IMG/VR virus record: IMGVR_UViG_2778261619_000009
DNA length: 23,862 nucleotides
Strand: one strand, 5' to 3'
DNA from: a virus
Lineage: Duplodnaviria; Heunggongvirae; Uroviricota; Caudoviricetes
Part shown: positions 1,728 through 22,809 of the stretch, one piece after another
Layout: every line of letters begins with the position of its first letter
Numbering within the stretch: position 1 is the first letter of the stretch
The notes under the pieces: generated by a model
The model's input: only the letters and a program-made list of their open reading frames with translations
The model's database searches: none
What the model was told of the DNA's origin: nothing
Translations under genes and position numbers: made by a program

Positions 1728-2628
1728 CCGTTCCTCCGTTGGTTACGCTCCACTGCGTACATGATGCGGCCTGTGTTTTGTTCAGGACCACATCCGCCAG
1801 CGGTGAAGCCAGCTCCACACGTTGAACCCCCTCAACATGCAGCGCGGCAAAAATGGCACTACGGCGAATATCCCGACCAAGCCGCGTCTGACTGGCGATG
1901 TACTTCTGCAGGCTGGCTTTTGCCGCTGCCATTACCGGCTCCGCTTCCGGTCCCGGATAGAGAAAAATGGTGGCTTCCACACGGTACGGGATGATTTCTG
2001 CACTGCGAACCGTCAGACGGTCAGCCACCGGGCGGACGTTCTCACTGTTCAGGGCTTTTTCCACCACATCCAGCAGGTCTTTTTCTGCTGTTCCGTCGCC
2101 TTCGCGGCTAAGGACTGTCAGCACCACCTCTGCAGGTGCCGGACTGGTTGCACTGGCATCCGCCACCCGACCGTCGGCGCTTCGGGCATGAAATTCATAA
2201 GCTGCAGTTGGCCCCGCAACTGAAAGCCCCTCAAAGGCTGCAGGCACACGCAGGCGTAACGCTTCATCGCTTTCCATCACAGCTGCAACGGGCGGCACAG
2301 CGTCATCATCAGCAGGCGTCACCGTCAGGCGTTTCACGTTGTAGTTGGCAGCGAGCTGGTCCAGATCGCCGCCCATCGCGTAAGCCACCATCACCGCCTG
2401 CGCGGCTTCGTTAATGCGCTGGCGCAGAAGCAACTCACGGTAAGCGTTCTCCTGCAGCAATTTGGTGACGGGTTCAGATTCCAGTTCCAGCGTGCGGATC
2501 ACAGCCTCCTGCTCATCTTTCGGATGAAGCGCCACAAATTCTGCCTTGCGTTCGGCAAGCAGCGTCTCAAAGTCCGGCACATCCACAATCTGCGGCGCAG
2601 GCAACTGCGAAAGGTCAATCACTGCCAT
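1720..2628 (-). CDS. J: Baseplate protein (P2 gpJ-like)
   Basis: Track ORF 1720..2667 trimmed to the internal ATG at 2628 (MAVIDLSQLPAPQIVDV..., AGGAG SD upstream), giving 302 aa. Strong resemblance to P2 gpJ throughout (RLGRDIR.SAI.AALHVEGVQRVELA.PLADIVLN). Confidence 0.85.
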   Translation of the reverse strand: MAVIDLSQLPAPQIVDVPDFETLLAERKAEFVALHPKDEQEAVIRTLELESEPVTKLLQENAYRELLLRQRINEAAQAVMVAYAMGGDLDQLAANYNVKRLTVTPADDDAVPPVAAVMESDEALRLRVPAAFEGLSVAGPTAAYEFHARSADGRVADASATSPAPAEVVLTVLSREGDGTAEKDLLDVVEKALNSENVRPVADRLTVRSAEIIPYRVEATIFLYPGPEAEPVMAAAKASLQKYIASQTRLGRDIRRSAIFAALHVEGVQRVELASPLADVVLNKTQAASCTQWSVTNGGTDE

Positions 2629-2974
2629 TCTCTGCTCCTGTTGATACGGAAAGGGACACAGGCACACCGTTATTCCGCCGCCCGGTCAGCTCCACCACCA
2701 TTGAACCGTCAAAATTGCTGTTGATGGTGATGGAATCCAGCGTCAGCCGTGGCTCCCAGCGACTCAGTGCCACATACACAGCCGACATGACCTGCAGGCG
2801 TAACGCCGGATTTTGTGGCTGATCTATTAAAGCCGACAGCAGGGAACCATATTCCCGGCGGGCAATGCGGCTACCCTGCGGTGTCAGTAGAATGTCCCGC
2901 ACCGACTGGCGCAGATGGTCAATATCAGTAATAGCTTTACCGCTGGTATTGTTCATCCCGCTATAAAGCGTCAT
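2615..2974 (-). CDS. W: Baseplate wedge protein (P2 gpW-like)
   Basis: 119-aa ORF, ATG at 2974 with GGAGGT SD, ATGA-type overlap with gpV stop; size and position match P2 W. Confidence 0.8.
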   Translation of the reverse strand: MTLYSGMNNTSGKAITDIDHLRQSVRDILLTPQGSRIARREYGSLLSALIDQPQNPALRLQVMSAVYVALSRWEPRLTLDSITINSNFDGSMVVELTGRRNNGVPVSLSVSTGAENGSD

Positions 2975-3549
2975 ACCGGACCTCCGGTGGTATCGCCGCC
3001 TTTCAGGACGCCAGTATGCTGATGCGCATCAACCACGATCCCGTTAGAACTCATCGCTCCGCCGCCCTGGGTAACGCCACCATTGATCACCACTTCGCTG
3101 TTAATGCGCGTGCGGTCAGCCTCCAGTACAAACTCACTGGTTTTCATGGTGATGTTGTCAGCGGCCTCAATGACCATTGATTTGATGCCCCTGACATACC
3201 AGCGCCCACTGGCGGGTTCGTATTCAAACCAGCCACCGTCAGGATGTTCTGTCACGCAGGCGTCCGCCGACGTCGACGGTGGTGCGAACTGATTCGAATA
3301 GACAGCGGGCAGCGCAAAGGCCGTCTCCAGATTGCCGCCCAGACTCAGCAGCACCACCTGCTCACCTTCCGATGGTTTCCACCATGTGCGGGCATTACCC
3401 GCGCGCAGCGTCAGCCAGTTAATCCAGTTGGTTTCAAGGTCGCCCGTTTTCACCCGGCAAAGCCAGTTTTCCCGGTCCACTTCGGTGACTACACCAGTGC
3501 GGATCAGGTTGGTGATAAGGCGCATGATTTCGGTTAATTGTGCGTTCAT
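2971..3549 (-). CDS. V: Baseplate spike/hub protein (P2 gpV-like)
   Basis: 192-aa ORF upstream of W, ATG at 3549; position and size consistent with P2 V. Confidence 0.8.
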   Translation of the reverse strand: MNAQLTEIMRLITNLIRTGVVTEVDRENWLCRVKTGDLETNWINWLTLRAGNARTWWKPSEGEQVVLLSLGGNLETAFALPAVYSNQFAPPSTSADACVTEHPDGGWFEYEPASGRWYVRGIKSMVIEAADNITMKTSEFVLEADRTRINSEVVINGGVTQGGGAMSSNGIVVDAHQHTGVLKGGDTTGGPV

Positions 3550-3617
3550 AGGGAAAGGTTGCCATCAGGGGAAGAAAGGCGGCAGTGCTGCAACTTGTAT
3601 CAGTGCTGATACAAAGA

Positions 3618-4064
3618 TCACCCCGCCAGCCATTGCAGAATCATGTCGCGGGTCATTGCCTCAACATCATCATTTACACCCAGCAGGCGGCGCTCTGCGT
3701 AACGGACCTCCGGTCCTTTGCGACTGACGCGATCACGCAGGCCGTAATGGTGAACACGGGCAATACGCTGCACCTTGCCTTCAAACTGTACGCTGGCAGA
3801 GTCGGCGCTGGCGGCAGTTTTCAGGTATTTTGTGGTGCGCAACTTTGCAAACATCTGACGTTTGATGCGGCCTTTCTTGCTGCGTGCTGTTACCCTGCGC
3901 GGTTCATAACTGCTGCCATCTGGATTGCGCTGCATCCTGATATTCTGCTGCTGTGTCCGGCGCAGTTCCTGCGCCAGCTGGCGCATCATGCGGCTTCTCG
4001 TGGCTGGTTCCAGATTCGCCAGCAAGGCACTCAGCCAGTCGTCCACCTTCTGCAGTTCAGCCAC
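3618..4064 (-). CDS. S: Tail completion protein (P2 gpS-like)
   Basis: 148-aa ORF starting at GTG 4064 and overlapping the R stop; position R-S-V as in P2. Start codon uncertain (an internal Met pair lies ~26 codons in). Confidence 0.75.
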   Translation of the reverse strand: MAELQKVDDWLSALLANLEPATRSRMMRQLAQELRRTQQQNIRMQRNPDGSSYEPRRVTARSKKGRIKRQMFAKLRTTKYLKTAASADSASVQFEGKVQRIARVHHYGLRDRVSRKGPEVRYAERRLLGVNDDVEAMTRDMILQWLAG

Positions 4065-6862: not shown

Positions 6863-7513
6863 TCAGCGGCTGTCATTGCGCAGTCTGCGCTCCAGCTGCT
6901 GTTTGTCTTTTTTCACGCCACAGCGGGGATCAAGCTGTAACGCATGGTTGAGATGATTAAGGGCGGAAGCCGGATTGCTTTCACTCAGGACAGCGCCAAT
7001 CGCTTTATGCAGACGCGCCCGTGACTGGTCCGGCATATCCAGACCGTCTGTCAGCTCCAGCGTCTGCAACAACAGATCGGCATCAAAGCCGGTGGCGGCA
7101 AGCATTGCGCTCTGCGCGGCGTCTGCCATTTCCTCTGCCAGCACGGTCTGCACGTTGCGGTTACCCAGCGGCATCACCCAGCCATGACGCAGGGCATGAC
7201 GCCCGATCTCCAGCGCCCCGGCATAATCTCCGGCATCAATGCGCCACAGCATCACGTACATCAGCACGTCATCCTGTTGAGCGCCTCCGGCAGCCAGGAC
7301 ACCCTCTGCCCAGGCGGCGTACTTCGGCAGCAGCTCCACCTTGATTTCCGCTTTTTTGACCGTGGACTGAACGCCCTTGAGACGGCGGCGGTCTTCCGCC
7401 AGTTGCAGCAGCATCAGGTCATAGCCCGATGCGTGGCGAACACTGCCGCCCTCGCGGGCGGCCTGTTCAGCCTGAACGCGCAGGCGATGCTGCCGTGCGG
7501 GACTCAGGCTCAT
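6863..7513 (-). CDS. M: Terminase small/endonuclease subunit (P2 gpM-like)
   Basis: 216-aa ORF; motifs RHA.GY..ML..LA.D...LK and DD.LM.VMLWR.D.GD.AGALEI..YAL matching my recollection of P2 gpM. Confidence 0.85.
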   Translation of the reverse strand: MSLSPARQHRLRVQAEQAAREGGSVRHASGYDLMLLQLAEDRRRLKGVQSTVKKAEIKVELLPKYAAWAEGVLAAGGAQQDDVLMYVMLWRIDAGDYAGALEIGRHALRHGWVMPLGNRNVQTVLAEEMADAAQSAMLAATGFDADLLLQTLELTDGLDMPDQSRARLHKAIGAVLSESNPASALNHLNHALQLDPRCGVKKDKQQLERRLRNDSR

Positions 7514-7516
7514 GGA

Positions 7517-8575
7517 TTACGCTCCGGTTTCGGCTGCGGCGGCGCTGAAATCACCAATCTGGATGTTTTCCACCAGTGCGGCGCAGCGGTAGTCCTCAAC
7601 CACATAGGCTTCATTAACGGATTCAAAGTTTTCAATCCGGTCACGTTTCGGGTTGTCGATAACTGAACGGCGGCGGGTGTCTTCCTGCCAGTAGATGGAC
7701 AGGTTATCCAGACGGGTGATCAGCAGCGCATTCGGCGGGAAGAACGGCGCACGCACGGCCTGCAGGCCACCCATGCGTTTCTGGCTGATGATCATATCGG
7801 CAGCCAGTTTTTCACTGTTTTCCTGCTCTTTGTTGACCAGCGGGAAATACTTGTCAGACAACAGTTCACGACCGCAAATCACCACCAGATCGTCATCGTC
7901 CTGGTAAACCACGTCGATAAGCTCATTGACGGCATCCATCACCACAGCGTCCAGGTTGGCATATTCGCCACCTTTCCCGACTTTCACCGCACCCGGAGTG
8001 GTTTCACCGCCCGTGGTGGTGCTGCCCATGACGTGATCCGGTGCATCCTCACGGATTTTCTGCAGCCAGCCTTTGTTCACATCCTGCAGCAGCGGGTTTT
8101 CACTACGGTTGGAGGTTTTCGCACGCTTCACGCCGTTAAAGCCGATCATGATGCGGTCCAGTGCCTGACGTTTCACGATGGCGTCACGGATACGCACCTG
8201 GAAATCCTGAAACTTCGCCCACAGGTCCAGCTTCGCGTAGGTCAGCACCGTGTCAAAGTTGGTCTGCTCGCATTTGTATTCCACATCGACCATCAGCGTC
8301 GGATCGACAGGTTCACGCTCTTTCGCGGTGGTGTCAGTGGTTCCGGCAATGGTGCTGCCAACACCCAGCCCCAGCAGCTGACCGGACTGCTCAGTCACTG
8401 GCGTGACGTTAATCAGCGTCAGGAAAGCGGCGGACTGCTGGATCTGGTCTTCCAGCGTCTGCTGCACAGACGGCTCTACAGTGAACTTGCTGGACAGTTC
8501 TTCAACTGCCACACCGTTCAGACGTGCCAGTTGCTGCAGGTAAGCGTTAAAAGCAAAGCGGGTATTCTTCTTCAT
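7517..8575 (-). CDS. N: Major capsid protein (P2 gpN-like)
   Basis: 352-aa ORF between O and M, GGAG SD; size matches P2 N (~357 aa). Confidence 0.85.
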   Translation of the reverse strand: MKKNTRFAFNAYLQQLARLNGVAVEELSSKFTVEPSVQQTLEDQIQQSAAFLTLINVTPVTEQSGQLLGLGVGSTIAGTTDTTAKEREPVDPTLMVDVEYKCEQTNFDTVLTYAKLDLWAKFQDFQVRIRDAIVKRQALDRIMIGFNGVKRAKTSNRSENPLLQDVNKGWLQKIREDAPDHVMGSTTTGGETTPGAVKVGKGGEYANLDAVVMDAVNELIDVVYQDDDDLVVICGRELLSDKYFPLVNKEQENSEKLAADMIISQKRMGGLQAVRAPFFPPNALLITRLDNLSIYWQEDTRRRSVIDNPKRDRIENFESVNEAYVVEDYRCAALVENIQIGDFSAAAAETGA

Positions 8576-8590: not shown

Positions 8591-9424
8591 TCAGCAATTG
8601 GTCAGAGTGTCAGCGGGGGCGTTACCGCCTGTTGCACGCTGGCGGTAGTCCTGGCGGCTGTCTTCATGACTCAGCTTATTCACCAGTTCGTTAAAGGCGG
8701 TCTGCTGTGCCTGCAGGGCAGTCTCCAGCTCAGACAGACGTTCTTCCTGCTCAGACAGGGATTTTTCGGTGCGTGCGCTCAGGTTCTGCTGCTCAGTGGC
8801 GACCAGCTCCACGGCCTTATGCACATCAGAGAACCGGGCGTCATCGGACTGCTCTTTTTTGGTAAACAGCGCCGTGACGCGGGCAAACAGGGACGGTTTG
8901 TCGTCCTGGACTTCTTCCAGTTCGATCACCGTTTCCTCTGCGGCGGTAAAGAGATTGGCGGGATTCTGCTTGCGGTTTGCCAGCGGGTTATGGGCTGCAC
9001 TGGCGCTGAATGTCAGCATTTCAGTGCCCAGACTGGCAGGGTCATCAGTGGCAGCCAGGCCGACCAGGTAGGCTTTGCCCGTATCAGCGAACTTCGGGCT
9101 GACTTCCATAGAGGTGAATAATTTCTGGCCTTTTTTCACCAGCTCCACCAGGGACTCCGTTGGCTCAACGTCGGCATACAGCGCCATCTTGCCTGCCAGC
9201 GGACCTTCCGTGATTTCTTCAGCAAACAGCGCCGTCACCTTGCCGTAGCGGTTAAAGGTGCTGTCCGGCAGATAAGACTTGATGTGCTCAAGGTTAATCA
9301 GCGCGGTATACACCGCCGGGTTATAGCTGGCTGCCATCTGTTCCAGCCATTCACGCTGGATTTCGCGTCCGTCGGTGGTGGCACCTTCCACCCCGATGCG
9401 AAAACGCTTTGCTTTCACTGTCAT
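8591..9424 (-). CDS. O: Capsid scaffolding protein/protease (P2 gpO-like)
   Basis: 277-aa ORF; N-terminal FRIGVEG.T.DGR...INLEH and CYLVGLA.TDDPASLGTE motifs and a coiled-coil C-terminus ending ...TNC, as in P2 gpO. Confidence 0.9.
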   Translation of the reverse strand: MTVKAKRFRIGVEGATTDGREIQREWLEQMAASYNPAVYTALINLEHIKSYLPDSTFNRYGKVTALFAEEITEGPLAGKMALYADVEPTESLVELVKKGQKLFTSMEVSPKFADTGKAYLVGLAATDDPASLGTEMLTFSASAAHNPLANRKQNPANLFTAAEETVIELEEVQDDKPSLFARVTALFTKKEQSDDARFSDVHKAVELVATEQQNLSARTEKSLSEQEERLSELETALQAQQTAFNELVNKLSHEDSRQDYRQRATGGNAPADTLTNC

Positions 9425-9566: not shown

Positions 9567-11333
9567 ATGAACACCACACTGACACCCGCAGATCTCGATC
9601 CCCGTCGGCAGGCCATGCTGCTGTACTTTCAGGGATACCGCGTAGCCCGCATTGCTGAAATGCTGGGCGAGAAAGTTGCAACCGTTCACAGCTGGAAAAA
9701 ACGCGACAAGTGGGGTGACTATGGGCCGCTGGATCAGATGCAGCTCACCACCGCCGCACGCTACTGCCAGCTCATCATGAAGGAGCACAAAGAAGGGAAA
9801 GATTTCAAAGAGATTGACCTGCTGGCGCGCCAGTCTGAGCGCCACGCGCGGATCGGCAAGTTTAACAATGGCGGCAACGAAGCCGACTTAAACCCTAACG
9901 TCGCCAACCGCAACAAAGGCCCACGCCGTCAGCCTGAAAAGAATGTTTTCACCGATGAACAAATTGAGAAGCTGGAAGAAATTTTCCATTCCTCCATGTT
10001 TAACTACCAGCGCCACTGGTGGGAAGCCGGAAAAACCAACCGCATCCGCAACCTGCTAAAGTCACGCCAGATCGGCGCGACCTTCTATTTTGCCCGTGAG
10101 GCCCTGATTGACGCCCTGCTTACCGGACGTAACCAGATTTTCCTTTCTGCCAGTAAGGCACAGGCTCACGTCTTTAAGCAGTACATCATCGATTTCGCCA
10201 AAGAAGTCGAGGTGGAGCTGAAAGGTGATCCGATGGTGCTTCCTAACGGGGCCACGCTTTACTTCCTCGGCACCAATGCCCGCACGGCCCAGAGTTACCA
10301 CGGCAACCTGTATCTGGATGAATATTTCTGGATACCGAAATTCCAGGAGCTGCGCAAAGTGGCTTCCGGTATGGCTATTCACAAAAAATGGCGACAGACC
10401 TATTTTTCCACGCCATCCAGCCTGACACACAGTGCTTATCCGTTCTGGTCCGGTGCGCTGTTCAACCGAGGGCGCAACAAAGCCGATAAGGTGGACATCG
10501 ACCTGTCCCACAGCAATCTGGCCCCCGGCCTGCTGTGCGCAGACGGGCAGTACCGCCAGATAGTCACTGTGGAAGATGCGGTGCGCGGCGGATGTAACCT
10601 GTTCGACCTTGACCAGTTGCGCATGGAGTACAGCCCGGACGAATACCAGAATCTGCTGATGTGTGAGTTCGTGGACGATCTCGCGTCCGTATTCCCGCTC
10701 AGCGAGCTGCAGGCGTGCATGGTAGACAGCTGGGAAGTCTGGACCGACTTTCATGCACTGGCGCTGCGCCCGTTTGGCTGGCGCGAAGTGTGGATCGGTT
10801 ATGACCCGGCAAAAGGTACGCAAAACGGCGACAGCGCCGGATGCGTGGTGGTGGCACCGCCAGCCGTGCCGGGTGGTAAGTTCCGCATTCTTGAGCGTCA
10901 CCAGTGGCGCGGGATGGACTTCCGCGCCCAGGCTGACGCCATCAAAAAACTGACCGAACAGTACAACGTGACATACATCGGTATCGACTCAACCGGCGTC
11001 GGTCACGGGGTTTACGAGAACGTGAAAGCGTTTTTTCCTGCCGTCCGGGAGTTTGTCTACAACCCCAACGTTAAAAACGCCCTGGTACTCAAGGCCTACG
11101 ACATTATTAGCCACCGCCGCCTGGAGTTTGACGCCGGGCACACCGACATTGCGCAGTCATTCATGGCAATCCGTCGCGCCACCACCGCCAGTGGCAACCG
11201 CCCAACCTATGAAGCCAGCCGCAGCGAAGAAGCCAGCCACGCAGATTTGGCCTGGGCAACGATGCACGCACTGTTTAACGAACCGCTGCAGGGCGAAGCC
11301 GCCAATACCAGCAACATTGTGGAGATTTTCTGA
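9567..11333 (+). CDS. P: Terminase large (ATPase) subunit (P2 gpP-like)
   Basis: 588-aa ORF; deviant Walker A (LLKSRQIGAT), Walker B (LYLDEYFW), C-terminal nuclease-like domain; size as P2 P (~590 aa). Confidence 0.9.
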   Translation: MNTTLTPADLDPRRQAMLLYFQGYRVARIAEMLGEKVATVHSWKKRDKWGDYGPLDQMQLTTAARYCQLIMKEHKEGKDFKEIDLLARQSERHARIGKFNNGGNEADLNPNVANRNKGPRRQPEKNVFTDEQIEKLEEIFHSSMFNYQRHWWEAGKTNRIRNLLKSRQIGATFYFAREALIDALLTGRNQIFLSASKAQAHVFKQYIIDFAKEVEVELKGDPMVLPNGATLYFLGTNARTAQSYHGNLYLDEYFWIPKFQELRKVASGMAIHKKWRQTYFSTPSSLTHSAYPFWSGALFNRGRNKADKVDIDLSHSNLAPGLLCADGQYRQIVTVEDAVRGGCNLFDLDQLRMEYSPDEYQNLLMCEFVDDLASVFPLSELQACMVDSWEVWTDFHALALRPFGWREVWIGYDPAKGTQNGDSAGCVVVAPPAVPGGKFRILERHQWRGMDFRAQADAIKKLTEQYNVTYIGIDSTGVGHGVYENVKAFFPAVREFVYNPNVKNALVLKAYDIISHRRLEFDAGHTDIAQSFMAIRRATTASGNRPTYEASRSEEASHADLAWATMHALFNEPLQGEAANTSNIVEIF

Positions 11334-12058
11334 TGCACTCAACCCCAACTAACCTCATGACCACCGCCAGCCTGCCTGTAGATCGCCCTTTCTTTGCTTA
11401 CCAGCATGAATGGAACAGTGGCGCACGCAGCAGAAACCGCGTGCTTACAAAAATGCGTCAGGCTGGCGCGGATTTCTTTTTCGCCTACGAAGCCCTGAAC
11501 GATGCACTGCACACCGGACGCAACCAGATTTTTCTGGGCTGCACCCCGGCATCAGCCCTGACCGTCAAAACCTATATATCAGCTTTTTTAAGTGAGGCAG
11601 CAGCCTGGACGCATCTTGGGAAAATAAAATCAGGTAAAGCGCATCTGGAACTCCCAAACGGTGCGGTCATTTATTTTATCGGGCCGGAAAGTCTCGCTGC
11701 CGCGCTCCATGGAAACGTCTACGTGTCAGAGTATGCCTGGGCTGACTCCCCCAAAAATATGATTGCGCTCGCCAAAAGCCTGTCCATGCACGCGCGCTAT
11801 CACGCTACCTACTACACCACCCCAAGCCCCAGCCCGGAAGCATGGCAGGAATACAAGAATCTGATCGCCCGCAACAGCACTACCTGCATGACCTTTACCG
11901 CTGATGACGCTGCAGCATCCGGGGCTACGCTCGCAACCGGAGCCGCGCTCTTTGATGATGAATGGCTGAATGACATGAAAAAAGAATTATCACCGGAGGA
12001 CTGGAAAATGCTGTTTATGTGCGAATGGCCCCAGGCTGACAAGGAGCAGGCGGCATGA
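11333..12058 (+). CDS. Truncated, degenerate paralogue of the terminase ATPase domain (extra gene between P and Q)
   Basis: 241-aa ORF; ATG overlaps the P stop (TGATG) and its stop overlaps the Q start (ATGA). Aligns by eye to P residues ~140-370 (FFFAYEALNDALHTGRNQIFL vs FYFAREALIDALLTGRNQIFL; LPNGAVIYFIG vs LPNGATLYFLG) with Walker A/B positions altered (KMRQAGAD, VYVSEY). Confidence 0.6.
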   Translation: MHSTPTNLMTTASLPVDRPFFAYQHEWNSGARSRNRVLTKMRQAGADFFFAYEALNDALHTGRNQIFLGCTPASALTVKTYISAFLSEAAAWTHLGKIKSGKAHLELPNGAVIYFIGPESLAAALHGNVYVSEYAWADSPKNMIALAKSLSMHARYHATYYTTPSPSPEAWQEYKNLIARNSTTCMTFTADDAAASGATLATGAALFDDEWLNDMKKELSPEDWKMLFMCEWPQADKEQAA

Positions 12059-13095
12059 GCAAACGTAAAAACAAGAACAACCGCGCAGCGGTGGATCACA
12101 ACGCAGAATCTGGCGGCGCTGCGGCAGAGGCGTTTAGCTTTGGCGACCCGGTGCCGGTGTTAGACCGACGCGAATTGCTGGACTACGTGGAATGCGTGCA
12201 GATGGACCGCTGGTATGAGCCGCCGGTGAGCTTTGACGGACTGGCGCGGACCTATCGCGCTGCCGTGCATCACAGTTCACCAATTGCGGTGAAATGCAAC
12301 ATTCTGACCAGTACCTACATCCCTCACCCGCTGCTCAGCCAGCAGGCTTTTTCACGTTTTGTGCAGGACTATCTGGTATTTGGTAACGCCTACCTGGAGA
12401 AACGCACGAACCGCTTCGGTGAAGTTATCGCCCTTGAGCCTGCTCTGGCAAAATACACCCGACGCGGGTTAGACCTGGATACCTACTGGTTTGTGCAATA
12501 CGGTATGACAACCCAGCCGTATCAGTTCACGAAAGGCAGCATTTTTCATCTGATGGAACCGGACATCAACCAGGAGATCTACGGCCTGCCCGGTTATCTT
12601 TCTGCCATTCCGTCAGCCCTGCTCAACGAGTCCGCCACGCTGTTCCGCCGTAAGTATTACATCAACGGCAGCCATGCAGGCTTCATCATGTATATGACCG
12701 ATGCCGCGCAGAACCAGGAGGATGTGAACAACCTCCGCAACGCGATGAAAAGCGCCAAAGGCCCTGGCAACTTCCGCAATCTGTTTATGTACTCGCCTAA
12801 CGGCAAAAAGGACGGACTTCAGATTATCCCGTTGTCAGAAGTCGCAGCGAAGGATGAGTTTCTGAATATCAAGAACGTGAGCCGTGATGACATGATGGCT
12901 GCGCACCGCGTGCCGCCGCAAATGATGGGGATTATGCCTAATAATGTCGGGGGATTTGGTGATGTGGAAAAGGCCAGCAAAGTCTTTGTCCGAAACGAGC
13001 TAATTCCGCTACAGAAGCGGCTGCAAGAACTTAACCAATGGGTTGGTGAAGAGGTAGCTCGCTTTGAATCATATTGTCTAGAACCAAGGGAATAA
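12055..13095 (+). CDS. Q: Portal protein (P2 gpQ-like)
   Basis: 346-aa ORF; FSFGDPVPVLDRRELLDYVEC, ESATLFRRKYYINGSHAGFIMY and KVFVRNELIPLQ match my recollection of P2 gpQ (344 aa). Confidence 0.9.
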   Translation: MSKRKNKNNRAAVDHNAESGGAAAEAFSFGDPVPVLDRRELLDYVECVQMDRWYEPPVSFDGLARTYRAAVHHSSPIAVKCNILTSTYIPHPLLSQQAFSRFVQDYLVFGNAYLEKRTNRFGEVIALEPALAKYTRRGLDLDTYWFVQYGMTTQPYQFTKGSIFHLMEPDINQEIYGLPGYLSAIPSALLNESATLFRRKYYINGSHAGFIMYMTDAAQNQEDVNNLRNAMKSAKGPGNFRNLFMYSPNGKKDGLQIIPLSEVAAKDEFLNIKNVSRDDMMAAHRVPPQMMGIMPNNVGGFGDVEKASKVFVRNELIPLQKRLQELNQWVGEEVARFESYCLEPRE

Positions 13096-13139: not shown

Positions 13140-13979
13140 TTAGATGGCTGGGTTGATGTAATCACCCACGTCATCACCTTGTAGACTAATGTACTCAACC
13201 CGCCACTGGTCCATTCGCCGTAACGCATACAGACTGAATTCAACGTCAGGAACTGCGTTACAAGACATAAGCGCAATGAGTTCACTTTCAGACGCATCAC
13301 CATGGTACGTTACAAAGAACTCTTCAATTTGTGTTGCCGCCTGCTCTGCCTCTGCTCTTGCATCCGGCCCACCATCTATAGAATCATAGACAAGATGAAT
13401 ATTCAGTTCGTAAGGTACACCTTCCTCTAAATCATTGAAACGATCTTCGCCTAAATCAAAGAATATACCTATCAAATAGACTGAATGTTTGCTAATTATC
13501 TTTGCGAGTTCTTTTTCGAATCTAAATTTCTTTGTGTCGAAAGCTCTTAGCCTACTCTCAAAAACATCAGGAAAGGCAGGTCGCCCATAGCGGGCAGCAA
13601 GCCATTGTTTTAAACCTTGCTTTTCCTCAGGGGATATTTGGCAAGTAGGGTCACATCCCACACACGTGAAACGTTCTTTATCAATACGAAATTTGTTGTC
13701 ATGTCTTAGTTCAATTGCATTTTGATTCGCGTCACGCGCTTGCTCTAAATGCAAATGCAGAACTCTGGGATGTTTAGCACGTGCATAATTGCTGGCCCCC
13801 TTAATGAGAGGGCCAGCAATAAGCTCAACGCTGGGTTCAGAAGAGCTTTGCAAGTCACAATCATGACTGATCACGACAACTTTAACGCCTATTTCCTCTT
13901 CGGTAAGAATACCCAAAGAAACCGCATCCTCATGCCTAAGAACCTGGCCTTGGCGCCATGCTGTAGCAATATCAACCAT
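13140..13979 (-). CDS. Cargo protein C, 279 aa, unknown function (contains HDC...CVGCDPTC cysteine cluster)
   Basis: ATG at 13979, 10 nt after the ORF B stop; AT-rich codon usage unlike flanking phage genes; no recognisable family motif by eye. Confidence 0.7.
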   Translation of the reverse strand: MVDIATAWRQGQVLRHEDAVSLGILTEEEIGVKVVVISHDCDLQSSSEPSVELIAGPLIKGASNYARAKHPRVLHLHLEQARDANQNAIELRHDNKFRIDKERFTCVGCDPTCQISPEEKQGLKQWLAARYGRPAFPDVFESRLRAFDTKKFRFEKELAKIISKHSVYLIGIFFDLGEDRFNDLEEGVPYELNIHLVYDSIDGGPDARAEAEQAATQIEEFFVTYHGDASESELIALMSCNAVPDVEFSLYALRRMDQWRVEYISLQGDDVGDYINPAI

Positions 13980-13989
13980 AAATGACTAT

Positions 13990-14631
13990 CTACTCCTTCA
14001 TTCCTGAACCAGGTATAGAAACAGACGACATCCACCCGTCAGTTGGCGTGCTTTTGCTCCCAGTTAAATTCGCTTTTACACCTGCAATTTTAAGCTGGCG
14101 AGCTTCATCGATTAAGAGATTCACAGACGACTTCCAGTCATCGCCTCGCTTAATCAAATCAATAATAGATAAGCCGTCAAACGCTTTCATTTTTGACATC
14201 AACTTAGCATTTTCTACTCCTGCTTTGTTAAAGCGATCGGCTAATCTACTGAGTTCAATGATGTAACCAGCTTTCCCAATATCATCAGGCTGACTGTCAC
14301 CGGATAACCATTTGTATAATGCTTGCCTAGTAATACCCAAATCTTTAGCCAGTTCTGACATTGATGGAGAAAGAGTATCCCTAACATTACTTAAATGTTC
14401 TGAAATTGTCCTGATATCAACAGGGTCATTATCTGTATCCCCATGATTTTCAAGTTTAGATAACCCAAAATGGACTTTAGGTTGTACAAAACCACGCCAC
14501 TGGTTTACATCCTTCACAGAATAGCTCGCTCCTGTTCCACTCAGGAACATAGAGGTTGCAACAAATAACGCTCCAGCAATAGGAGCTAAACCAGGAGTCC
14601 CATAGCAACTACCAGTCATGGATTGACGCAT
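13990..14631 (-). CDS. Cargo protein B, ~213 aa: N-terminal hydrophobic segment plus XRE/Cro-type helix-turn-helix
   Basis: Track ORF starts at GTG 14658; trimmed to ATG 14631 preceded by GGGGAGGTG. Hydrophobic stretch LAPIAGALFVATSMFL (residues ~15-30) and HTH SMSELAKDLGITRQALYKWLSG (residues ~90-110). Confidence 0.7.
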   Translation of the reverse strand: MRQSMTGSCYGTPGLAPIAGALFVATSMFLSGTGASYSVKDVNQWRGFVQPKVHFGLSKLENHGDTDNDPVDIRTISEHLSNVRDTLSPSMSELAKDLGITRQALYKWLSGDSQPDDIGKAGYIIELSRLADRFNKAGVENAKLMSKMKAFDGLSIIDLIKRGDDWKSSVNLLIDEARQLKIAGVKANLTGSKSTPTDGWMSSVSIPGSGMKE

Positions 14632-14648
14632 ATTACACCTCCCCGGTG

Positions 14649-15455
14649 TTATACCCACCTATTAATGGCATGTTGGGATACCATTTTATTAAAGCTTTCC
14701 TTTACAACACCATGTAGTGAATTGAACTGTTGCTCAATTGAATCTATTTCTGGCGGCATGTTTCCTTCAACATAATGGTCTGTATCAATAATTCCATGCC
14801 AAAGAGCCTTGTCGCTCCTGAACCGCTCAAGCATTTCAACCCCAAAGGGCAAGATATCTGGAGGAAAACTCAACTGACCAAACATCTTATGCAAACGAGT
14901 TACTAAAAAGCCAGTACTTATAACAGGACCAACATTTGTTTGGAAAACCATCTCGTTAACCGATTGTATCGGAGATAAATCCAAATCTACACCATGTAAG
15001 CCATTGCAAAGGTACTGCTCAATCTTTTCACCCTCACTAGGTATTACGGCATCCAGATACCTCAAACCAAGTCTTGTCAAAAGGGCTGGGTTAGCATGTT
15101 CTATTACGACAGACAATCCTTCCATCAATGCTTTAAAGAACGGTTCATGTTCTTTGTAATCAGTCGTCTGGAAAGTAATAAAATCGTTACCCAAGACAAA
15201 ACCTGAAGTCTTAGTGATGTCAGACATATACCACTGCTGGACCATTTCAAAAGATGGCTGAGGCGATTCACCGGGCGTATTAACATCAAACACCATTTGC
15301 ATTGCCTCTCTTCTTTCAAAGAGTGGATAGCCCCTTAAACGCAATGCTTCCTGAATGTCATCGACATACTTTTTCATCGCCTTGATAGGCGTAAACTTAA
15401 CTTGCGCCAGCACATAGTATACGGGTGCATTGGACATGCGATTGCTGTCACTCAT
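14649..15455 (-). CDS. Cargo protein A, 268 aa, unknown function
   Basis: ATG at 15455 preceded by AGGAGGG (spacing 4); AT-rich; first gene of the three-gene operon. No nucleotide-binding or nuclease motif recognised. Confidence 0.7.
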   Translation of the reverse strand: MSDSNRMSNAPVYYVLAQVKFTPIKAMKKYVDDIQEALRLRGYPLFERREAMQMVFDVNTPGESPQPSFEMVQQWYMSDITKTSGFVLGNDFITFQTTDYKEHEPFFKALMEGLSVVIEHANPALLTRLGLRYLDAVIPSEGEKIEQYLCNGLHGVDLDLSPIQSVNEMVFQTNVGPVISTGFLVTRLHKMFGQLSFPPDILPFGVEMLERFRSDKALWHGIIDTDHYVEGNMPPEIDSIEQQFNSLHGVVKESFNKMVSQHAINRWV

Positions 15456-15813: not shown

Positions 15814-16047
15814 TTAATGCAGCCAGCTGTCGTCTTCCCACACCTTCTGCATAATTTTCATCACTTGTTTTCTTTCTTCGTCCTGTTGCAGCCCGGTCAG
15901 TTCCACACCGTTAGAGCTACCTTTGCGGATACGAATTACCGTTTTGGGATACAGGGGGCGCAGATTGCGGTAAAGCTCGGATTCAAGGGCGTCCAGGGTA
16001 GACTGGCTAATCTTCTGCTCTTTATCGATCATTATTTCAATGCGCAT
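15814..16047 (-). CDS. dinI: DinI-family protein (DNA-damage-inducible protein I-like)
   Basis: Track ORF 15814..16119 trimmed to ATG 16047 (MRIEIMIDKEQ...DALESELYRNL...VWEDDSWL), 77 aa, GAGGTG SD; closely resembles E. coli DinI (MRIEVTIAK...DALAGEL...). Confidence 0.8.
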   Translation of the reverse strand: MRIEIMIDKEQKISQSTLDALESELYRNLRPLYPKTVIRIRKGSSNGVELTGLQQDEERKQVMKIMQKVWEDDSWLH

Positions 16048-16057
16048 AAAAGTCACC

Positions 16058-16246
16058 TCAGCTGATGACATCCATTGAGCGGTTGTATTCGTGGCTTCTG
16101 ATTTTTGCCATGAGTTCATCAGTCAATTCAGAAACCCACTGCAGAGCCAGCCCCTTCTCTTCATCACTACACTCACTAGCCGCTACAAGCTTAAGAAAAA
16201 AATCAATGCGCTGGAGCTTCAAAGACTCCAAAAAAAAGTCCTGCAT
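16058..16246 (-). CDS. Small SOS-regulated protein (62 aa), first gene after the LexA box; possible Tum-like antirepressor fragment
   Basis: ATG at 16246 with perfect AGGAGG SD; track ORF 16058..16348 is a 5' extension that would run through the LexA box. Function inferred only from position. Confidence 0.5.
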   Translation of the reverse strand: MQDFFLESLKLQRIDFFLKLVAASECSDEEKGLALQWVSELTDELMAKIRSHEYNRSMDVIS

Positions 16247-16399: not shown

Positions 16400-18814
16400 T
16401 CAATACAGGTTCCGCCACTTATCATCTTCCTGCAAACGCTGGTTCCGATAGAAGATACGCAGGCCTGCTCCTGACGGAATACTGCCGCCGCGAATGAGTA
16501 AATCGACCTCTTTCTCGCTGCCATCAAATCCTCTGGACTTCAGTTCATAGACGAGCTGCTGTCGTTGATGGTCAGTAATTCGCTGTTTGTAGTCTCTACG
16601 CCGTTTCGGTTTCACCAGGCGTAACCTTGCAGCCAGTTCCCGGCGCTCTTTTTTGTTCATACTGTGCAGGTAATCGTGCAACTCCTTGTCATCCATGCGG
16701 GTGATATCCGTTCTGGTATCCCCATCAGCTGATTTGTCTTTCCCTTGTTGGTACAAATTTTCAGCAAGGGGACAGTTATTGCCACGAGTCCAAGGGGCGC
16801 AAGCGCCCTGGTCGGCTGCCGCCTCCTGAACGTCAACGGCCTTACGAACCATTTTCCACTTCACGGCATGAGTGCAGATCTTGCCCTCTGCAATAGGTGA
16901 CCAGATGCCATAAATACGAATGCCGTGATCGCCATAGGCGGTCGGCTCTTCGTTGATTTCATAAGCAGTTCTGATGAGGTGATATTTGCGGGGAACCAGT
17001 ACGCCACCCTGCTTCATGATGTAGGTGGCAAAACAACCAGCATCAGCAGCAGCCAGAATGGCATCAAGGCGCGGGTTATCCAGTACCGGCGCACCTGCTT
17101 TTTTGTCCCCCTGTTGCCTTGCCGCCTGACCAGCCAGCAATCGCAGTTCACGGTAAGCCTGACGCCCCGGAATGCCAAAGAAGCGGAATTGCTGAACACG
17201 ATGCAGAGACGCCCAGGCATTAACGTATTCAGCATTATCACGCAGGGATTTCCCCGTTTCCTTGCTGATCTCGCCAGCCAGACCACGACCGTCAATGTTC
17301 TTACTGATATATTTCGCGATGTAGCTTGTCGGCGTTCCTTTGCGCGGGTTAATCAACTCAGACTTAAAGCGCGGCCCAGTGTTATTGCCCAGCTCCTCGC
17401 GGTCTTCACGGATGGCAAACTTACGCAGTAATGCAGTAATGGCACGGCGGTCTTTTTTGCGCATGAAACACAACAGGTGCCAGTGAACTGTGCCGTCATG
17501 ATGCGGCTCAGCCACCCGCACGCCATACCAGCGCAACCCGGCTTTGTGCATCGCCTTACGAAATGCAGCAAACATGCCGACCAGATAATCGCTGCTTTGT
17601 CTTACCGTCGCGTTTGTCCAGGTCGGGTTTGGTCTGCCGTTATTTAGCGTGGAATGGAAACGCGACGGACAGGTGATAGTGTAGAAAACGGCGCAGTCAC
17701 CGCGCATTTCCGCGATAAGCTCCAGACCTTTAACACAGGCCATCATCTCATTGCGGCGATGCGCAGGGTTGCTGCTGCTGGCGTTTACCACATCCTCCAT
17801 GTCCAGCGTGTCGCCGTCTTCGTTCACCAGTTCATGAGAACGGAAAAACTCCAGCGACTTACGGCGCTGCTCACGTTTATGCATCACGGCTTCATAGCTG
17901 ACATAGGGAGATGCTTTTTTGCTGACCAGACAGACAGCACGTAACTGCTCTTCCCGCCATTCGCAACGCATCTTCCATAATTTCCGATACCACCAGTCGG
18001 CGCACAGCATACGCGCCAGCGAACCCGGAATGAGTTCATAGGGCACAGGTTTGCGGCGGTTTCTTTTCCGGCGGAGTTGCTCAAACGCAGGCGGTATGAC
18101 ATCCAGTCGCAGGGTTTCTGCTGCCACCTTTTCCCATGTCTTGCGGATTTCTTCCGGCTTAACATCATCGGAGGCGTACAAATCACCACAAGCGGCATCA
18201 AGACACATGCTCATATGCGCAGCGACAAGGGTGGACAGGCGTTTCACCTGATCCTGACTCATTTCAGGCAGGATCAGCAGACCGTCCAGCCCTTCATGGC
18301 TTGCCATAAAACGAAAAGATGCAGATAGCTGGCTGTCGCGTACATGCTCCAGTCGTTCCAGGCATGGCTTAATCGTCTCACGCAAATAGCGGGAATAAGC
18401 CTTTGGCCTGCCCAGGTTGCTGAAGTATTTAATACGTTGCATCAGCGGCTTGCTGATATGGGAAGGCTGGGCGTTGACATCCGCCAGAATGACCATGTCC
18501 GGATTAAAACGCTGCTGCTCATGCGCCAGCTTTGCCCGGCTAATTAGCTTATCCTGCTCCATTTCGCGCTGGACAGGATCACGGGATTCATTAAAGAAAT
18601 AACGCTCCCAGACCTGATCACTCAGTGCCTCGCGGCGCAGTTGTTCCTGCTCGTTATCGGCAGCGTACAAAGTGATCAGGTTTGAAAGCGCAGAAACCGG
18701 CGCAACTTCCGCCGGGTCCAGATAAGGGTTAATGGCCTTTTTCGGGCTGTTCCATGAGAATGCTGCGGCAGCCTCGTTAAAGCCGCAGCAGTTGTTCATA
18801 TCGGCATGACTCAT
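16400..18814 (-). CDS. A: Replication initiation endonuclease, rolling-circle type (P2 gpA-like)
   Basis: 804-aa ORF, ATG at 18814 (ATGA overlap with dam stop); histidine motif GTVHWHLL and tyrosine active-site pair in [11 protein letters not shown], typical of P2 A-family initiators. Confidence 0.9.
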
Positions 18815-19668
18815 GCACGTACTCCGTACACGGCAGAACTGTCCACGCCACGCGAATAATCAAACCCCACCCAGCAGCACGGCCCGGAAACAGCAATGAT
18901 TTCTGTTGCTGATTTACCCTCGCCAGCTGCCACACCGATGCTGCGTTTTGCTTTGATGTAGTGGTGGGTGAAATTGCGATACAACGAACGGATCAGGGAT
19001 GTGTCACTGTTAGAAACAATGACCGGATGTCCTTCTGATGACCGATGTTCAAGAACGGATGCCAGGTGATACTGGTCATCTTCAGTGAAACCATCAGTGT
19101 GATAGCCGGAAAACGTACCGTCATACGGCGGATCGCAATACACCACATCCCCCGCCTTCAACATCGCCAGCGTTTCATCAAAGCTGGCGCAGATAAACGT
19201 TGCTCGCTGGGCTTTTTCTGCAAATGCGCGAATTTCTTTTTCAGGGAAATACGGATTTTTATAATTACCGTAGGGAATATTGAAATGCCTGCTCTTGTTA
19301 TAGCGACATAAACCACGGTAACCGTGACGATTGAGATACAGGAAATATACCGCTTTCATGAAATCAGTAATTTCAGTTGAGTAATTAAACTCCTGCCTTA
19401 TGTTGTAATAAGCCACCTCCCTGTTTGCTTCCTCAAATAAAGCTCTGGCGCGAGATATAAACGATTCACAATCAGCAGCAACCTTTTTATAGAGGTTGAT
19501 TAAATCAGGATTAATATCCGCAACCAGATAGCTGGGGTACTCCGTCTCCATCATCACTGCACAGGAACCCGCGAAAGGTTCAACCAGTCGCGGGCCAGCA
19601 GGAAGATGCTTTTTCAGTTCGGACATAATGGCGGTTTTATTTCCCGCCCATTTCAGGATGGTGCTCAT
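18811..19668 (-). CDS. dam: DNA adenine methyltransferase (Dam-like, N6-adenine)
   Basis: Track ORF trimmed to ATG 19668 ([11 protein letters not shown]..., GGAGGTG SD, ATGA overlap with upstream gene); FAGSCAV SAM-binding motif and catalytic DPPY ([10 protein letters not shown]); collinear with E. coli Dam. Confidence 0.85.
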
Positions 19669-19892
19669 ACAGCACCTCCGTTGTAATGTTTGCCTTTCAG
19701 CTCTGCGATTTCCTGACAGGTAATGCAAAGCTGCACACCCGGAATGGCGCGGCGGCGTGCTGGCGGAATTGGCGCTTCACACTCAATGCAAAGCACGCGG
19801 GACACGCCCGGCGTTTTGGCACGGGCAGAACGGATATGGCGCTGGCGTTCTTCTTCAACGCGCTGCTGTACGAGATCCATTGCATCAGCCAT
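19665..19892 (-). CDS. DksA/TraR-family C4 zinc-finger protein
   Basis: 75-aa ORF with CIEC...(17)...CITC zinc-ribbon spacing typical of TraR/DksA C-terminal fingers. Confidence 0.7.
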   Translation of the reverse strand: MADAMDLVQQRVEEERQRHIRSARAKTPGVSRVLCIECEAPIPPARRRAIPGVQLCITCQEIAELKGKHYNGGAV

Positions 19893-22621: not shown

Positions 22622-22809
22622 CTTTTGCTTTTATATCTGCGTCTAAAATAAAAATGAGCCGCAGGTTAACCGCAAAAGTTACATGCTCACATAGCAAAAA
22701 GAATAGCCAACTTCATTATGGCTTCAGTGAGATGTATGGTCGTAGGATTTCATACATTGACACTGGTTATACATACAGTAAAAATGCTCTCTACTGGAGG
22801 GCATTTTTT

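Follow-up and report, generated by a model that had tools for sequence, protein, structure and literature searches.

Gene X lies between gene P, which encodes the large terminase (TerL), and gene Q, which encodes the portal protein, in the 23,862-nucleotide stretch of P2-like prophage DNA analysed here (the window; Table 1). X is a genuine gene. It is joined to both neighbours by overlapping stop and start codons, with an overlap of 1 nt with P (TGATG) and 4 nt with Q (ATGA); coordinates and overlaps thus confirm the two-sided coupling of the 241-aa reading frame that had been claimed in the original prediction. The Shine-Dalgarno-like sequences GGAG (for X) and AAGGAG (for Q) are both located 8 nt 5′ of the respective start codon. 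In relatives that lack X, the identical TGATG junction joins P straight to Q. A promoter scan directly upstream of X detected no promoter-like site, and none able to drive lysogenic expression. The original prediction had offered, as one possibility, that X is a superinfection-interference moron; we disfavour such a gene acting from the lysogen, since the scan gave no site for lysogenic expression of X and the loci of the family are located either in the late P-Q operon or next to the early gene A, to which they are coupled.

Table 1. Features of the X locus (positions in the window)
Feature	Position	Strand	Remarks
Gene P	9567–11333	+	Full-length large terminase, 588 aa; Pfam domain matches
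Recombination cassette	11217–12260	+	Spans the 3′ ~40 codons of P, all of X and the 5′ ~70 codons of Q; sliding-window identities, dS
P/X junction	11321–11335	+	GGAG Shine-Dalgarno at 11321–11324; P stop TGA (11331–11333) overlaps X start ATG (11333–11335)
Gene X	11333–12058	+	241-aa stand-alone terminase ATPase-domain paralogue, phage 186 W family
Adenine-binding ‘YQ’ motif, Y23-Q24	11399–11404	+	Gln invariant in TerLs and in the X/W family
Deviant Walker A, K40-M-R-Q-A-G-A-D47	11450–11473	+	K40, R42, Q43 and G45 kept
Hypervariable segment, aa 69–106	11537–11650	+	Stands where TerLs have the invariant S-A-S...Q motif region
Walker B region, G127-N-V-Y-V-S132-E133-Y	11711–11734	+	Asp replaced, catalytic Glu kept
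C-motif, T162-T-P-S165	11816–11827	+	TerL ATPase coupling motif; conserved
X/Q junction	12041–12058	+	AAGGAG Shine-Dalgarno at 12041–12046; Q start ATG (12055–12057) overlaps X stop TGA (12056–12058)
Gene Q	12055–13095	+	Portal protein, 346 aa; domain matches

Domain content and catalytic motifs of X

The P protein consists of an N-terminal HTH (Terminase_5), an ATPase domain (Terminase_6N, residues 162–382) and a nuclease domain (Terminase_6C, residues 410–571). Of these Pfam families X matches Terminase_6N only (PF03237; score 54.9 bits, above the curated cut-off of 22, E=1.2e-14); it also matches phrog_3746 (E=3e-93), and no match was found in NCBIfam. BLASTP aligned residues 21–232 of X to residues 145–368 of P with 33% identity, and at E=2e-34 the similarity is significant. 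The 40–45% identity read earlier by eye holds for the core, with tblastn giving ~40% across the first ~147 residues of X, but not for the aligned region as a whole. The BLASTP span and the Pfam matches also bear out the earlier claim that X lacks the N-terminal ~140 residues of P and its C-terminal nuclease: the HTH, and with it the 144 N-terminal residues of P, is missing, as is the RNase-H-like nuclease, there being no Terminase_6C match and X ending at the equivalent of P residue ~370. The AF2 model of X (pLDDT 83) has the TerL ATPase fold. Its top Foldseek matches in the PDB are the TerL proteins of T4 (gp17), P74-26, D6E, Sf6 and HK97, and its fold matches in BFVD are terminases without exception. 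A profile search of X against PDB sequences yielded no match, and it was the fold search alone that did.

The P2-type gpP (Terminase_5, Terminase_6N and Terminase_6C) shares with X the fold and the YQ, K-x-R-Q-x-G, TGRNQ, catalytic Glu and T-P-S motifs but, unlike X, has the N-terminal region, the nuclease, both Mg-ligand residues and the invariant motifs. In the Walker A motif, KSRQIGAT of P becomes KMRQAGAD in X, and in Walker B LYLDEY becomes VYVSEY, exactly as initially read; this supports the description of X as a shortened terminase ATPase-domain paralogue whose Walker motifs are altered. As judged by alignment, X has replaced both Mg2+-ligand positions, Walker-A Thr by Asp and Walker-B Asp by Ser. 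The first substitution is shared by nearly the whole subfamily of X (Asp47 in 63 of 64 members, where TerLs have Thr or Ser), and the Walker-B Asp is absent throughout it, the position being occupied by Ser in X and by Gly, Pro, Ala or Leu in others; among 59 full-length sequences the TerL position that matches S132 is Asp in 100%. X has further lost the TerL-invariant S-A-S...Q and T-N...Q motifs and H288, and its clade has also lost W294, G296, D326 and R330, with a ~25-residue deletion in this sub-domain of X. The adenine-binding Gln, the P-loop Lys, Arg, Gln and Gly, the catalytic Glu (E133) and the C-motif are invariant or nearly so in the X family, the alignment of which has 33 invariant columns. 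We also considered Arg239 of P, located just before Walker B, as a trans-acting arginine finger missing from X, and rejected it: among full-length relatives, only 46% have Arg there.

Since it lacks the N-terminal region, the nuclease, the Mg ligands and several invariant motifs, X alone cannot be a terminase. That it is ‘likely inactive’, as the original prediction had it, is not established, given the conservation of the remainder of the nucleotide-binding pocket. X could still be an active ATPase, the second one of the packaging machinery, with Asp47 taking over Mg2+ coordination from the lost Walker-B Asp in a ligand swap. This would fit the retained Glu, Lys, Arg, Gln and C-motif, the near-fixation of Asp47, the finding that the Thr-to-Asp change is seen solely in proteins without the Walker-B Asp, and the fully canonical Walker motifs of the basal family members 186 W, P0062 and P0072. 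We nevertheless regard an active enzyme as improbable: the range of residues accepted at the Walker-B site leaves Asp47 without a fixed partner, three proteins (P0097, P0129 and P0150) retain the Walker-A Ser although the Walker-B Asp is absent, and the motif losses in X and its clade likewise speak against activity.

Relatives, distribution and evolution of the gene

The original prediction took P and Q to be immediate neighbours in P2 as well as in 186. This proved right for P2 and wrong for 186, in which the P homologue, Orf12, and the Q homologue, Orf2, flank a 248-aa ‘W protein; similar to Orf12’ (AAC34147.1; GenBank U32222, CDS 1215–1961). An X-type gene between P and Q therefore has a precedent in 186 gene W. 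BLASTP aligned X to 186 W with 31% identity (E=4e-33). In a neighbour-joining tree the short proteins form one clade apart from the full-length terminases (72% bootstrap), with an inner clade that contains both 186 W and X (56% bootstrap); this support, obtained solely with a distance method, is moderate. By its sequence X is thus a diverged member, a derived variant, of the 186 W family of Peduoviridae, which is also found in PSP3 (gp2), EtG, Midge, SW9, the Yersinia YenM phages and the plaque-forming Yersinia phage vB_YpM_MLG42 (MLG42), with further 186 W homologues in SI22 and BIS20. A recent duplication of the resident P was considered as the origin of X and rejected, as the resident P is no nearer to X than other P proteins are, and the cognate P proteins cluster tightly, apart from the short clade.

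Like X, 186 W is a stand-alone protein of ~250 aa whose homology is confined to the ATPase domain of P2-type large terminases. Its gene likewise lies between those of the P and Q homologues and overlaps them at the stop and start codons, and 186 W, too, is devoid of the N-terminal HTH, the nuclease and the S-A-S...Q and T-N...Q motifs. Unlike X, it has canonical Walker A and B motifs (KSRQIGAT and GNVYLDEF as compared to KMRQAGAD and GNVYVSEY) and retains the W294/G296/D326/R330 sub-domain. The second ‘terminase large subunit’ (254 aa) of the Yersinia phages vB_YenM_56.17 and 201.16, both isolated, viable temperate phages, shares with X the P-X-Q synteny, the Walker-A change from Thr to Asp and the loss of the Walker-B Asp (here to Gly). 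It is only about 36–42% identical to X, however, keeps the sub-domain deleted in X and is nearer to 186 W (46% identity). A literature search covering 186 gene W, second terminases of P2-like phages, Avs decoys, Peduoviridae paralogues and vB_YenM_56.17 found no paper discussing the gene. Gene W of 186 is reportedly a late head gene by genetics, in work attributed to Hocking and Egan 1982 and Portelli et al. 1998. The 186 record gives the label /gene=W to two CDSs, that of W and that of the portal, and W ambers would have polar effects on the portal gene, which is coupled to W; on both counts the genetic case for a packaging role of W is weak.

The P-X-Q order with overlapping stop and start codons is found in all P-Q-context loci examined (nine species-representative genomes and several metagenomic contigs). 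The original prediction had set against itself a universally conserved gene with intact ATPase motifs in its homologues: such motifs do exist, for instance in 186 W, but the gene is far from universal, being present in 21 E. coli genomes as compared to about 1230 that carry the same P type. X is optional for a phage with P of this type, because the Klebsiella phage KP12, a sewage isolate, is without X and has a P identical to that of the window at 583 of 588 residues (99%). A sister clade (P0097, P0106 and P0121) is located in the early operon, coupled to the replication gene A and adjoining a variable cargo slot, rather than P or Q. The 1.8-kb contig of P0090 gave no information on gene context.

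Pairwise dN/dS values for X range from 0.12 to 0.38 and are mostly about 0.2, pointing to purifying selection. X also evolves faster than either P or Q: when the window is compared with the Yersinia phage, identity is about 42% for X, 69% for P and 65% for Q. The gene lies within a recombination cassette (Table 1), the divergence of which from relatives is uncoupled from that of the bodies of P and Q, and residues 69–106 exist as deeply diverged allelic forms swapped through intragenic recombination. The P proteins of the group are 95–99% identical between phages. We found no support for X type varying together with the N-terminus of the portal or the C-terminal tail of the terminase: the first ~25 portal residues are variable in all the phages, whether they carry X or lack it, and the tail of the terminase is conserved. 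The altered catalytic motifs, together with close relatives that do without the gene, could suggest a functionless, decaying partial duplicate. This explanation is effectively refuted by the reading frame, which stays intact at 220–260 aa down to about 30–37% identity to X across many Enterobacterales genera, by the invariant alignment columns and by the dN/dS values; the gene is, moreover, present in the virion-isolated phages MLG42, YenM 56.17 and 186.

Possible roles of X in packaging and in conflict

The reading that we favour, tentatively and with a probability of roughly 0.45, is that X is a nucleotide-binding, non-motor look-alike of the terminase that acts on the packaging motor; no available reading improves on the broad class originally proposed, ‘modulator, decoy or assembly factor’. 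X would be co-produced with the terminase and the portal from the late P operon via translational coupling. It would still bind nucleotide and, on its own, would neither cut nor translocate DNA. As a TerL look-alike it may bind the same partners as the ATPase domain of TerL, the likeliest being TerL itself or the assembling packaging motor, and as an accessory or regulatory subunit it would provide a conditional advantage and not an essential function. Several observations sit uneasily with this reading: KP12 dispenses with X while having a near-identical P, and X is rare among E. coli genomes with this P (21 versus about 1230); the fast, mosaic evolution and the hypervariable segment suggest a conflict gene more than a part of a motor; the sister clade resides in the early operon with gene A, away from P and Q; and the genetic evidence for W in packaging is weak.

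The main rival, which we consider unlikely, although less so than any other alternative, is that X is a terminase mimic deployed in conflict as a decoy, sponge or shield. Such a protein could occupy the sensors of the TerL ATPase (Avs1-3, Upx) or the terminase inhibitors of satellites and rival prophages, or it could cover monomeric TerL, so that the real terminase escapes. The patchy distribution, the cassette exchange, the faster evolution than that of P and Q and the hypervariable allelic segment are in keeping with this, as is the early-operon clade, made before terminase production and located beside a variable cargo slot. TerL-targeting proteins have a precedent in PLE Gpi and Listeria TerI. 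The TerL ATPase domain by itself activates EcAvs2 and Upx, and EcAvs2 senses the ATP bound to the terminase together with the hydration shell of the Mg2+ (PMC13601566); X is altered at precisely the two Mg-ligand positions, with the rest of the pocket kept. A search of X against the PADLOC defence-protein models matched 0 families at E≤0.01, which is neutral for a decoy.

Stand-alone TerL-like proteins, T4 vs.8 and Ksap1/2, activate Avs2 and have been speculated to be anti-defence proteins (PMC13601566). Like X, they are small, lineage-restricted phage proteins that copy only the ATPase domain of the terminase. In contrast to X, vs.8 has canonical Walker A and B motifs and is encoded far from the packaging genes, and it triggers Avs2 rather than blocking it (PMC13601566), which tells against a decoy. 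The X family and vs.8 are not homologous by hhalign (probability 0.2%); vs.8 is therefore independently derived, from a T4-type terminase. In the literature found, no TerL-like protein is reported as an inhibitor; the motifs of 186 W are intact; and X of the window is predicted to be produced roughly 1:1 with P and not earlier, all of which also count against a decoy. 186 W is, furthermore, said to be a conditional-lethal head gene on laboratory E. coli, where a decoy should be needless, although polarity on the portal could explain the phenotype. A more specific form of the idea, somewhat less likely again, is that X and perhaps the entire W family serve in counter-defence: a copy of the terminase ATPase domain with its catalysis disabled, produced early or alongside the terminase, would titrate or blind Avs1-3, Upx or inhibitors directed at the terminase, and the fixed Mg2+-ligand changes would preclude the ATP/Mg-dependent ‘bridging’ contact through which the sensor is switched on.

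The arms-race pattern of evolution would also suit a dominant-negative poison of foreign terminases, directed against co-induced rival P2-like phages or terminase-using satellites, and X, consisting of the ATPase domain alone, could act as a subunit that caps the TerL ring of a foreign terminase. We find this scarcely probable, since X is predicted to be expressed only within the phage’s own lytic programme, beside its own nearly invariant P, and the high identity of P across phages leaves little scope for self/non-self specificity. P4-type satellites use the helper’s own terminase, so poisoning would not discriminate against them.

No motor known in biology is stronger than the large terminase, which is also among the main targets of innate immunity in bacteria. 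The packaging operon here contains an optional but conserved copy of the terminase ATPase domain with both metal ligands changed, a natural experiment on roles other than hydrolysis, and X reopens the old question of the role of 186 gene W and of the independence of P2 from W. Because natural phages with and without X have 99% identical terminases, this question can be tested directly. A role in modulating the motor would make X the first non-catalytic subunit described for a phage terminase, and a role as a decoy would make it the first countermeasure of a phage to terminase sensing.

A terminase ATPase-domain paralogue between P and Q

The window is a P2-like (Peduoviridae) prophage, and X is, as predicted from the sequence, a paralogue of the ATPase region of the large terminase P. 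BLASTP aligned X 21-232 with P 145-368 at 33% identity (E=2e-34), with ~40% identity across the first ~147 residues. The sole Pfam match of X is Terminase_6N (54.9 bits), while P also carries an N-terminal Terminase_5 HTH and a C-terminal Terminase_6C nuclease. An AlphaFold2 model of X, built from 26 family members (mean pLDDT 83; residues 1-17 disordered), has a TerL fold: its best PDB matches include the terminase ATPase domains of T4 gp17, P74-26, D6E, Sf6 and HK97 as well as the PhiV-1 terminase bound to Avs3, and its matches among viral models are terminases without exception. The Walker changes noted in the original prediction are present, with KSRQIGAT of P becoming KMRQAGAD, and LYLDEY becoming VYVSEY. 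P2-type terminases themselves lack the classical P-loop Lys, having G-A-T in place of G-K-T. Their invariant Lys instead lies four residues upstream of the Gly (K-S-R-Q-I-G-A-T; P residues 165-172), a deviant Walker A found in all 59 full-length relatives examined.

Features of the window and sister-clade genes of related loci (L013, L014, L023)
Feature	Position	Strand	Remark
Small terminase M	6863-7513	-	head gene
Capsid N	7517-8575	-	head gene
Scaffold O	8591-9424	-	head gene
P, large terminase	9567-11333	+	588 aa
X	11333-12058	+	241 aa
Portal Q	12055-13095	+	
Three ORFs	13140-15455	-	279 aa; 222 aa, weak HTH_3/YdaS-like match; 268 aa; portal gene to DinI slot
D12-class methyltransferase and DinI-like gene	18811-19728 and 15814-16119	-	accessory genes; methyltransferase in the early operon
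Sister-clade gene, L013	6001-6750		early operon
Sister-clade gene, L014	6001-6696		early operon
Sister-clade gene, L023	5001-5738		early operon

X is tightly coupled to both neighbours: the P stop TGA (11331-11333) has one base in common with the X ATG, and the X stop TGA (12056-12058) lies within an ATGA with the Q ATG (12055). Shine-Dalgarno-like motifs lie 8 nt 5' of the X start (GGAG) and 8 nt 5' of the Q start (AAGGAG). We found no sigma-70-like promoter around the X start, so the late P promoter should drive X along with P and Q.

The integrase ORF (22654-23862; 402 codons, no stop) is open at the window end, so the prophage end and attachment site lie outside the window. In the early operon, a D12-class (Dam-type) adenine methyltransferase gene lies immediately 5' of replication gene A; a DinI-like gene follows downstream of A. 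Both are typical accessory genes of 186-like phages. In relatives, the slot between the portal and DinI genes holds a TIR protein, a SEFIR protein, an AAA ATPase, a KAP NTPase or SocA_Panacea; it is the hotspot of P2-like phages for variable cargo or defence genes. Pfam, PADLOC and PHROG gave no function for the three ORFs that occupy it here, and these may be an undescribed system.

Phage 186 W and the short-protein family

The direct P-Q adjacency stated for P2 and 186 in the original prediction holds for P2 (Q 187-1221, P 1221-2993) but not for 186, in which W intervenes: GenBank U32222 places a 248-aa 'W protein; similar to Orf12' (1215-1961) between the portal gene Orf2 (196-1218) and the P homologue Orf12 (1961-3730). 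An extra P-Q gene is thus not unprecedented; the gene class has stood in the 186 record for decades. X is 31% identical to 186 W (E=4e-33). Homologues of W that are >90% identical occupy the same position in EtG, PSP3 (gp2), Midge, SI22, SW9 and BIS20, and a 46%-identical form is found in Yersinia phages vB_YenM_56.17 and 201.16. Yersinia phage vB_YpM_MLG42 carries a copy of X itself, 94.6% identical and annotated 'hypothetical', and Escherichia phage 500465-1 carries one that is 88% identical and frameshifted in the record; the RefSeq name for this type of gene is 'terminase large subunit domain-containing protein'. In the 500465-1 record (L002, NC_049342, 4001-5758) the X homologue and the portal gene are each split into two CDSs, reflecting frameshifts from either sequencing errors or a decaying prophage. 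In U32222 (L026, 196-1961), the label /gene=W is shared by the portal CDS (Orf2) and the 'W protein' CDS, which makes it ambiguous which ORF is the genetically defined gene W. Amber mutants of W would be polar on the portal gene, whose start codon overlaps the W stop codon.

An exhaustive profile search yielded 547 relatives; of their clusters at 50% identity, ~40 consist of short proteins of 220-260 aa. A bootstrapped NJ tree was built on the ATPase domain. In it the short proteins group together, separately from every full-length terminase (72% bootstrap), except for P0080 (283 aa), which falls among the full-length terminases; support is 56% for an inner clade that contains 186 W together with X. 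Phages bearing X or W have cognate P proteins that form a tight cluster elsewhere in the tree. X is therefore an old, diverged member of a known, functionally uncharacterised family and did not arise by a recent duplication.

Full-length terminases always have K-[SAG]-R-Q-x-G-x-[TS] and then D-E. The short family retains the adenine-binding Gln, Arg36, the P-loop Lys/Arg/Gln/Gly, Glu53, the G-R-N-Q strand, the catalytic Glu, Trp136 and the T-P-S C-motif. Terminase-invariant S-A-S...Q (P 194-199), T-N...Q (P 236-242) and His288 are gone from all short proteins, 186 W included. Canonical Walker A and B persist in 186 W and in the homologues P0062 and P0072. Across the Yersinia form and X's large clade, the Walker-A Thr is Asp in 63 of 64 sequences and the Walker-B Asp is never present (Ser in 51, otherwise Gly, Pro, Ala or Leu). 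The Thr-to-Asp change is confined to proteins without the Walker-B Asp, and P0097, P0129 and P0150 have lost the Walker-B Asp while keeping a Walker-A Ser. X's own clade additionally has a ~25-residue deletion that takes terminase-invariant W294, G296, D326 and R330. From this pattern we infer a maintained nucleotide pocket, Mg2+ handling rebuilt or abolished, and loss of motor and DNA functions. That X is instead an active ATPase with swapped Mg ligands strikes us as improbable. Our literature search found no account of a large subfamily with fixed substitutions at both Mg ligands, nor a description of cassette-like or allelic evolution or of an alternative early-operon location of the X family.

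Divergence, exchange and distribution of X

dN/dS is 0.12-0.38 (mostly ~0.2) for X, 0.01-0.17 for P and 0.05-0.14 for Q. X diverges much faster than P and Q: identities between the window and the Yersinia phage are ~42% for X, 69% for P and 65% for Q. A decaying duplicate, the least credible reading of X, is effectively excluded. X behaves as an exchangeable cassette: the P of E. coli locus L006 differs from that of the window by a dN of 0.001, yet the X proteins are just 74% identical, while in loci L005 and L007 X is 95-98% identical, yet the P/Q backbones share only 80-90% nucleotide identity. The block that is exchanged spans ~11217 to ~12260. Within X, residues 69-106 (window 11537-11650) occur in at least two allelic forms that are 24-30% identical, in proteins otherwise 70-100% identical; homologue P0008, for example, matches X at 100% over residues 1-68 and at 24% over 69-106. 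The pattern points to recombination within the gene or to diversifying selection acting on a single helix-loop.

By megablast, X is present in 21 of 5426 complete E. coli genomes, as against 1230 for the window's P type. In ~70 close Klebsiella and E. coli phages, P directly abuts Q via the same TGATG junction. As the X-less Klebsiella phage KP12, a sewage isolate, has a P identical to that of the window at 583 of 588 residues, the window's terminase does not need X. Among species-representative genomes, nine of nine hits are arranged P-X-Q (Pantoea, Citrobacter, Phytobacter, Atlantibacter, three Yersinia, Serratia and Buttiauxella).

A sub-clade of P0106, P0090, P0097 and P0121 (100% bootstrap), a sister clade of the X/W family with '[SP]-E-W' where terminase Walker B has 'D-E', lies outside P-Q in the three members with an informative contig (that of P0090 is 1.8 kb and uninformative). 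There the gene belongs to the early operon, immediately behind replication gene A or behind small ORFs next to A, which it overlaps or abuts; in these P2-like prophages P abuts Q. Such a location implies that the protein can serve a purpose when it is produced earlier than terminase and at a distance from the packaging genes.

Possible functions of X

X is a TerL ATPase-domain look-alike that should be co-expressed with terminase and portal; it is conserved yet optional, its nucleotide pocket apparently preserved and its metal ligands replaced. Our preferred reading, to which we give a probability of roughly 0.45, is that X is a packaging subunit: it would bind nucleotide without a motor role, dock on the ATPase domain of TerL or on the assembling motor and modulate packaging. 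This reading rests chiefly on the near-universal P-X-Q coupling and further on the fact that 186 W was classically named as a late gene. Work by Hocking and Egan in 1982 and Portelli et al. in 1998 reportedly made 186 W a conditional-lethal head gene. The genetic evidence on W is weak because of its doubled gene label and the polarity of W ambers on the translationally coupled portal gene.

The main rival, which we hold to be rather unlikely, makes X a decoy, sponge or shield in conflicts that target terminase; its rate of change, cassette exchange and rarity, and the early-operon home of its sister clade, are more typical of a conflict gene than of a machine part. The TerL ATPase domain by itself triggers EcAvs2 and Upx, and EcAvs2 touches the γ-phosphate of terminase-bound ATP and the Mg2+ hydration shell via a bridging ATP (PMC13601566). 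X is altered at exactly the Mg ligands. The same study speculates that stand-alone terminase-ATPase-like proteins, such as T4 vs.8, whose role is unknown, are anti-defence factors (PMC13601566). However, the effect of vs.8 on Avs2 is activation, not a block, and inhibition by X has no support in our analysis; vs.8 and X have no sequence-level homology, which indicates independent origins. That X poisons foreign terminases seems to us slightly less probable still than an active ATPase.

The original prediction was largely correct, save for its premise that the extra gene was unprecedented. With natural X-plus and X-minus phages that have identical terminases, X offers a tractable system, and it bears both on the old question of 186 W and on the current one of how phages cope with terminase sensing.
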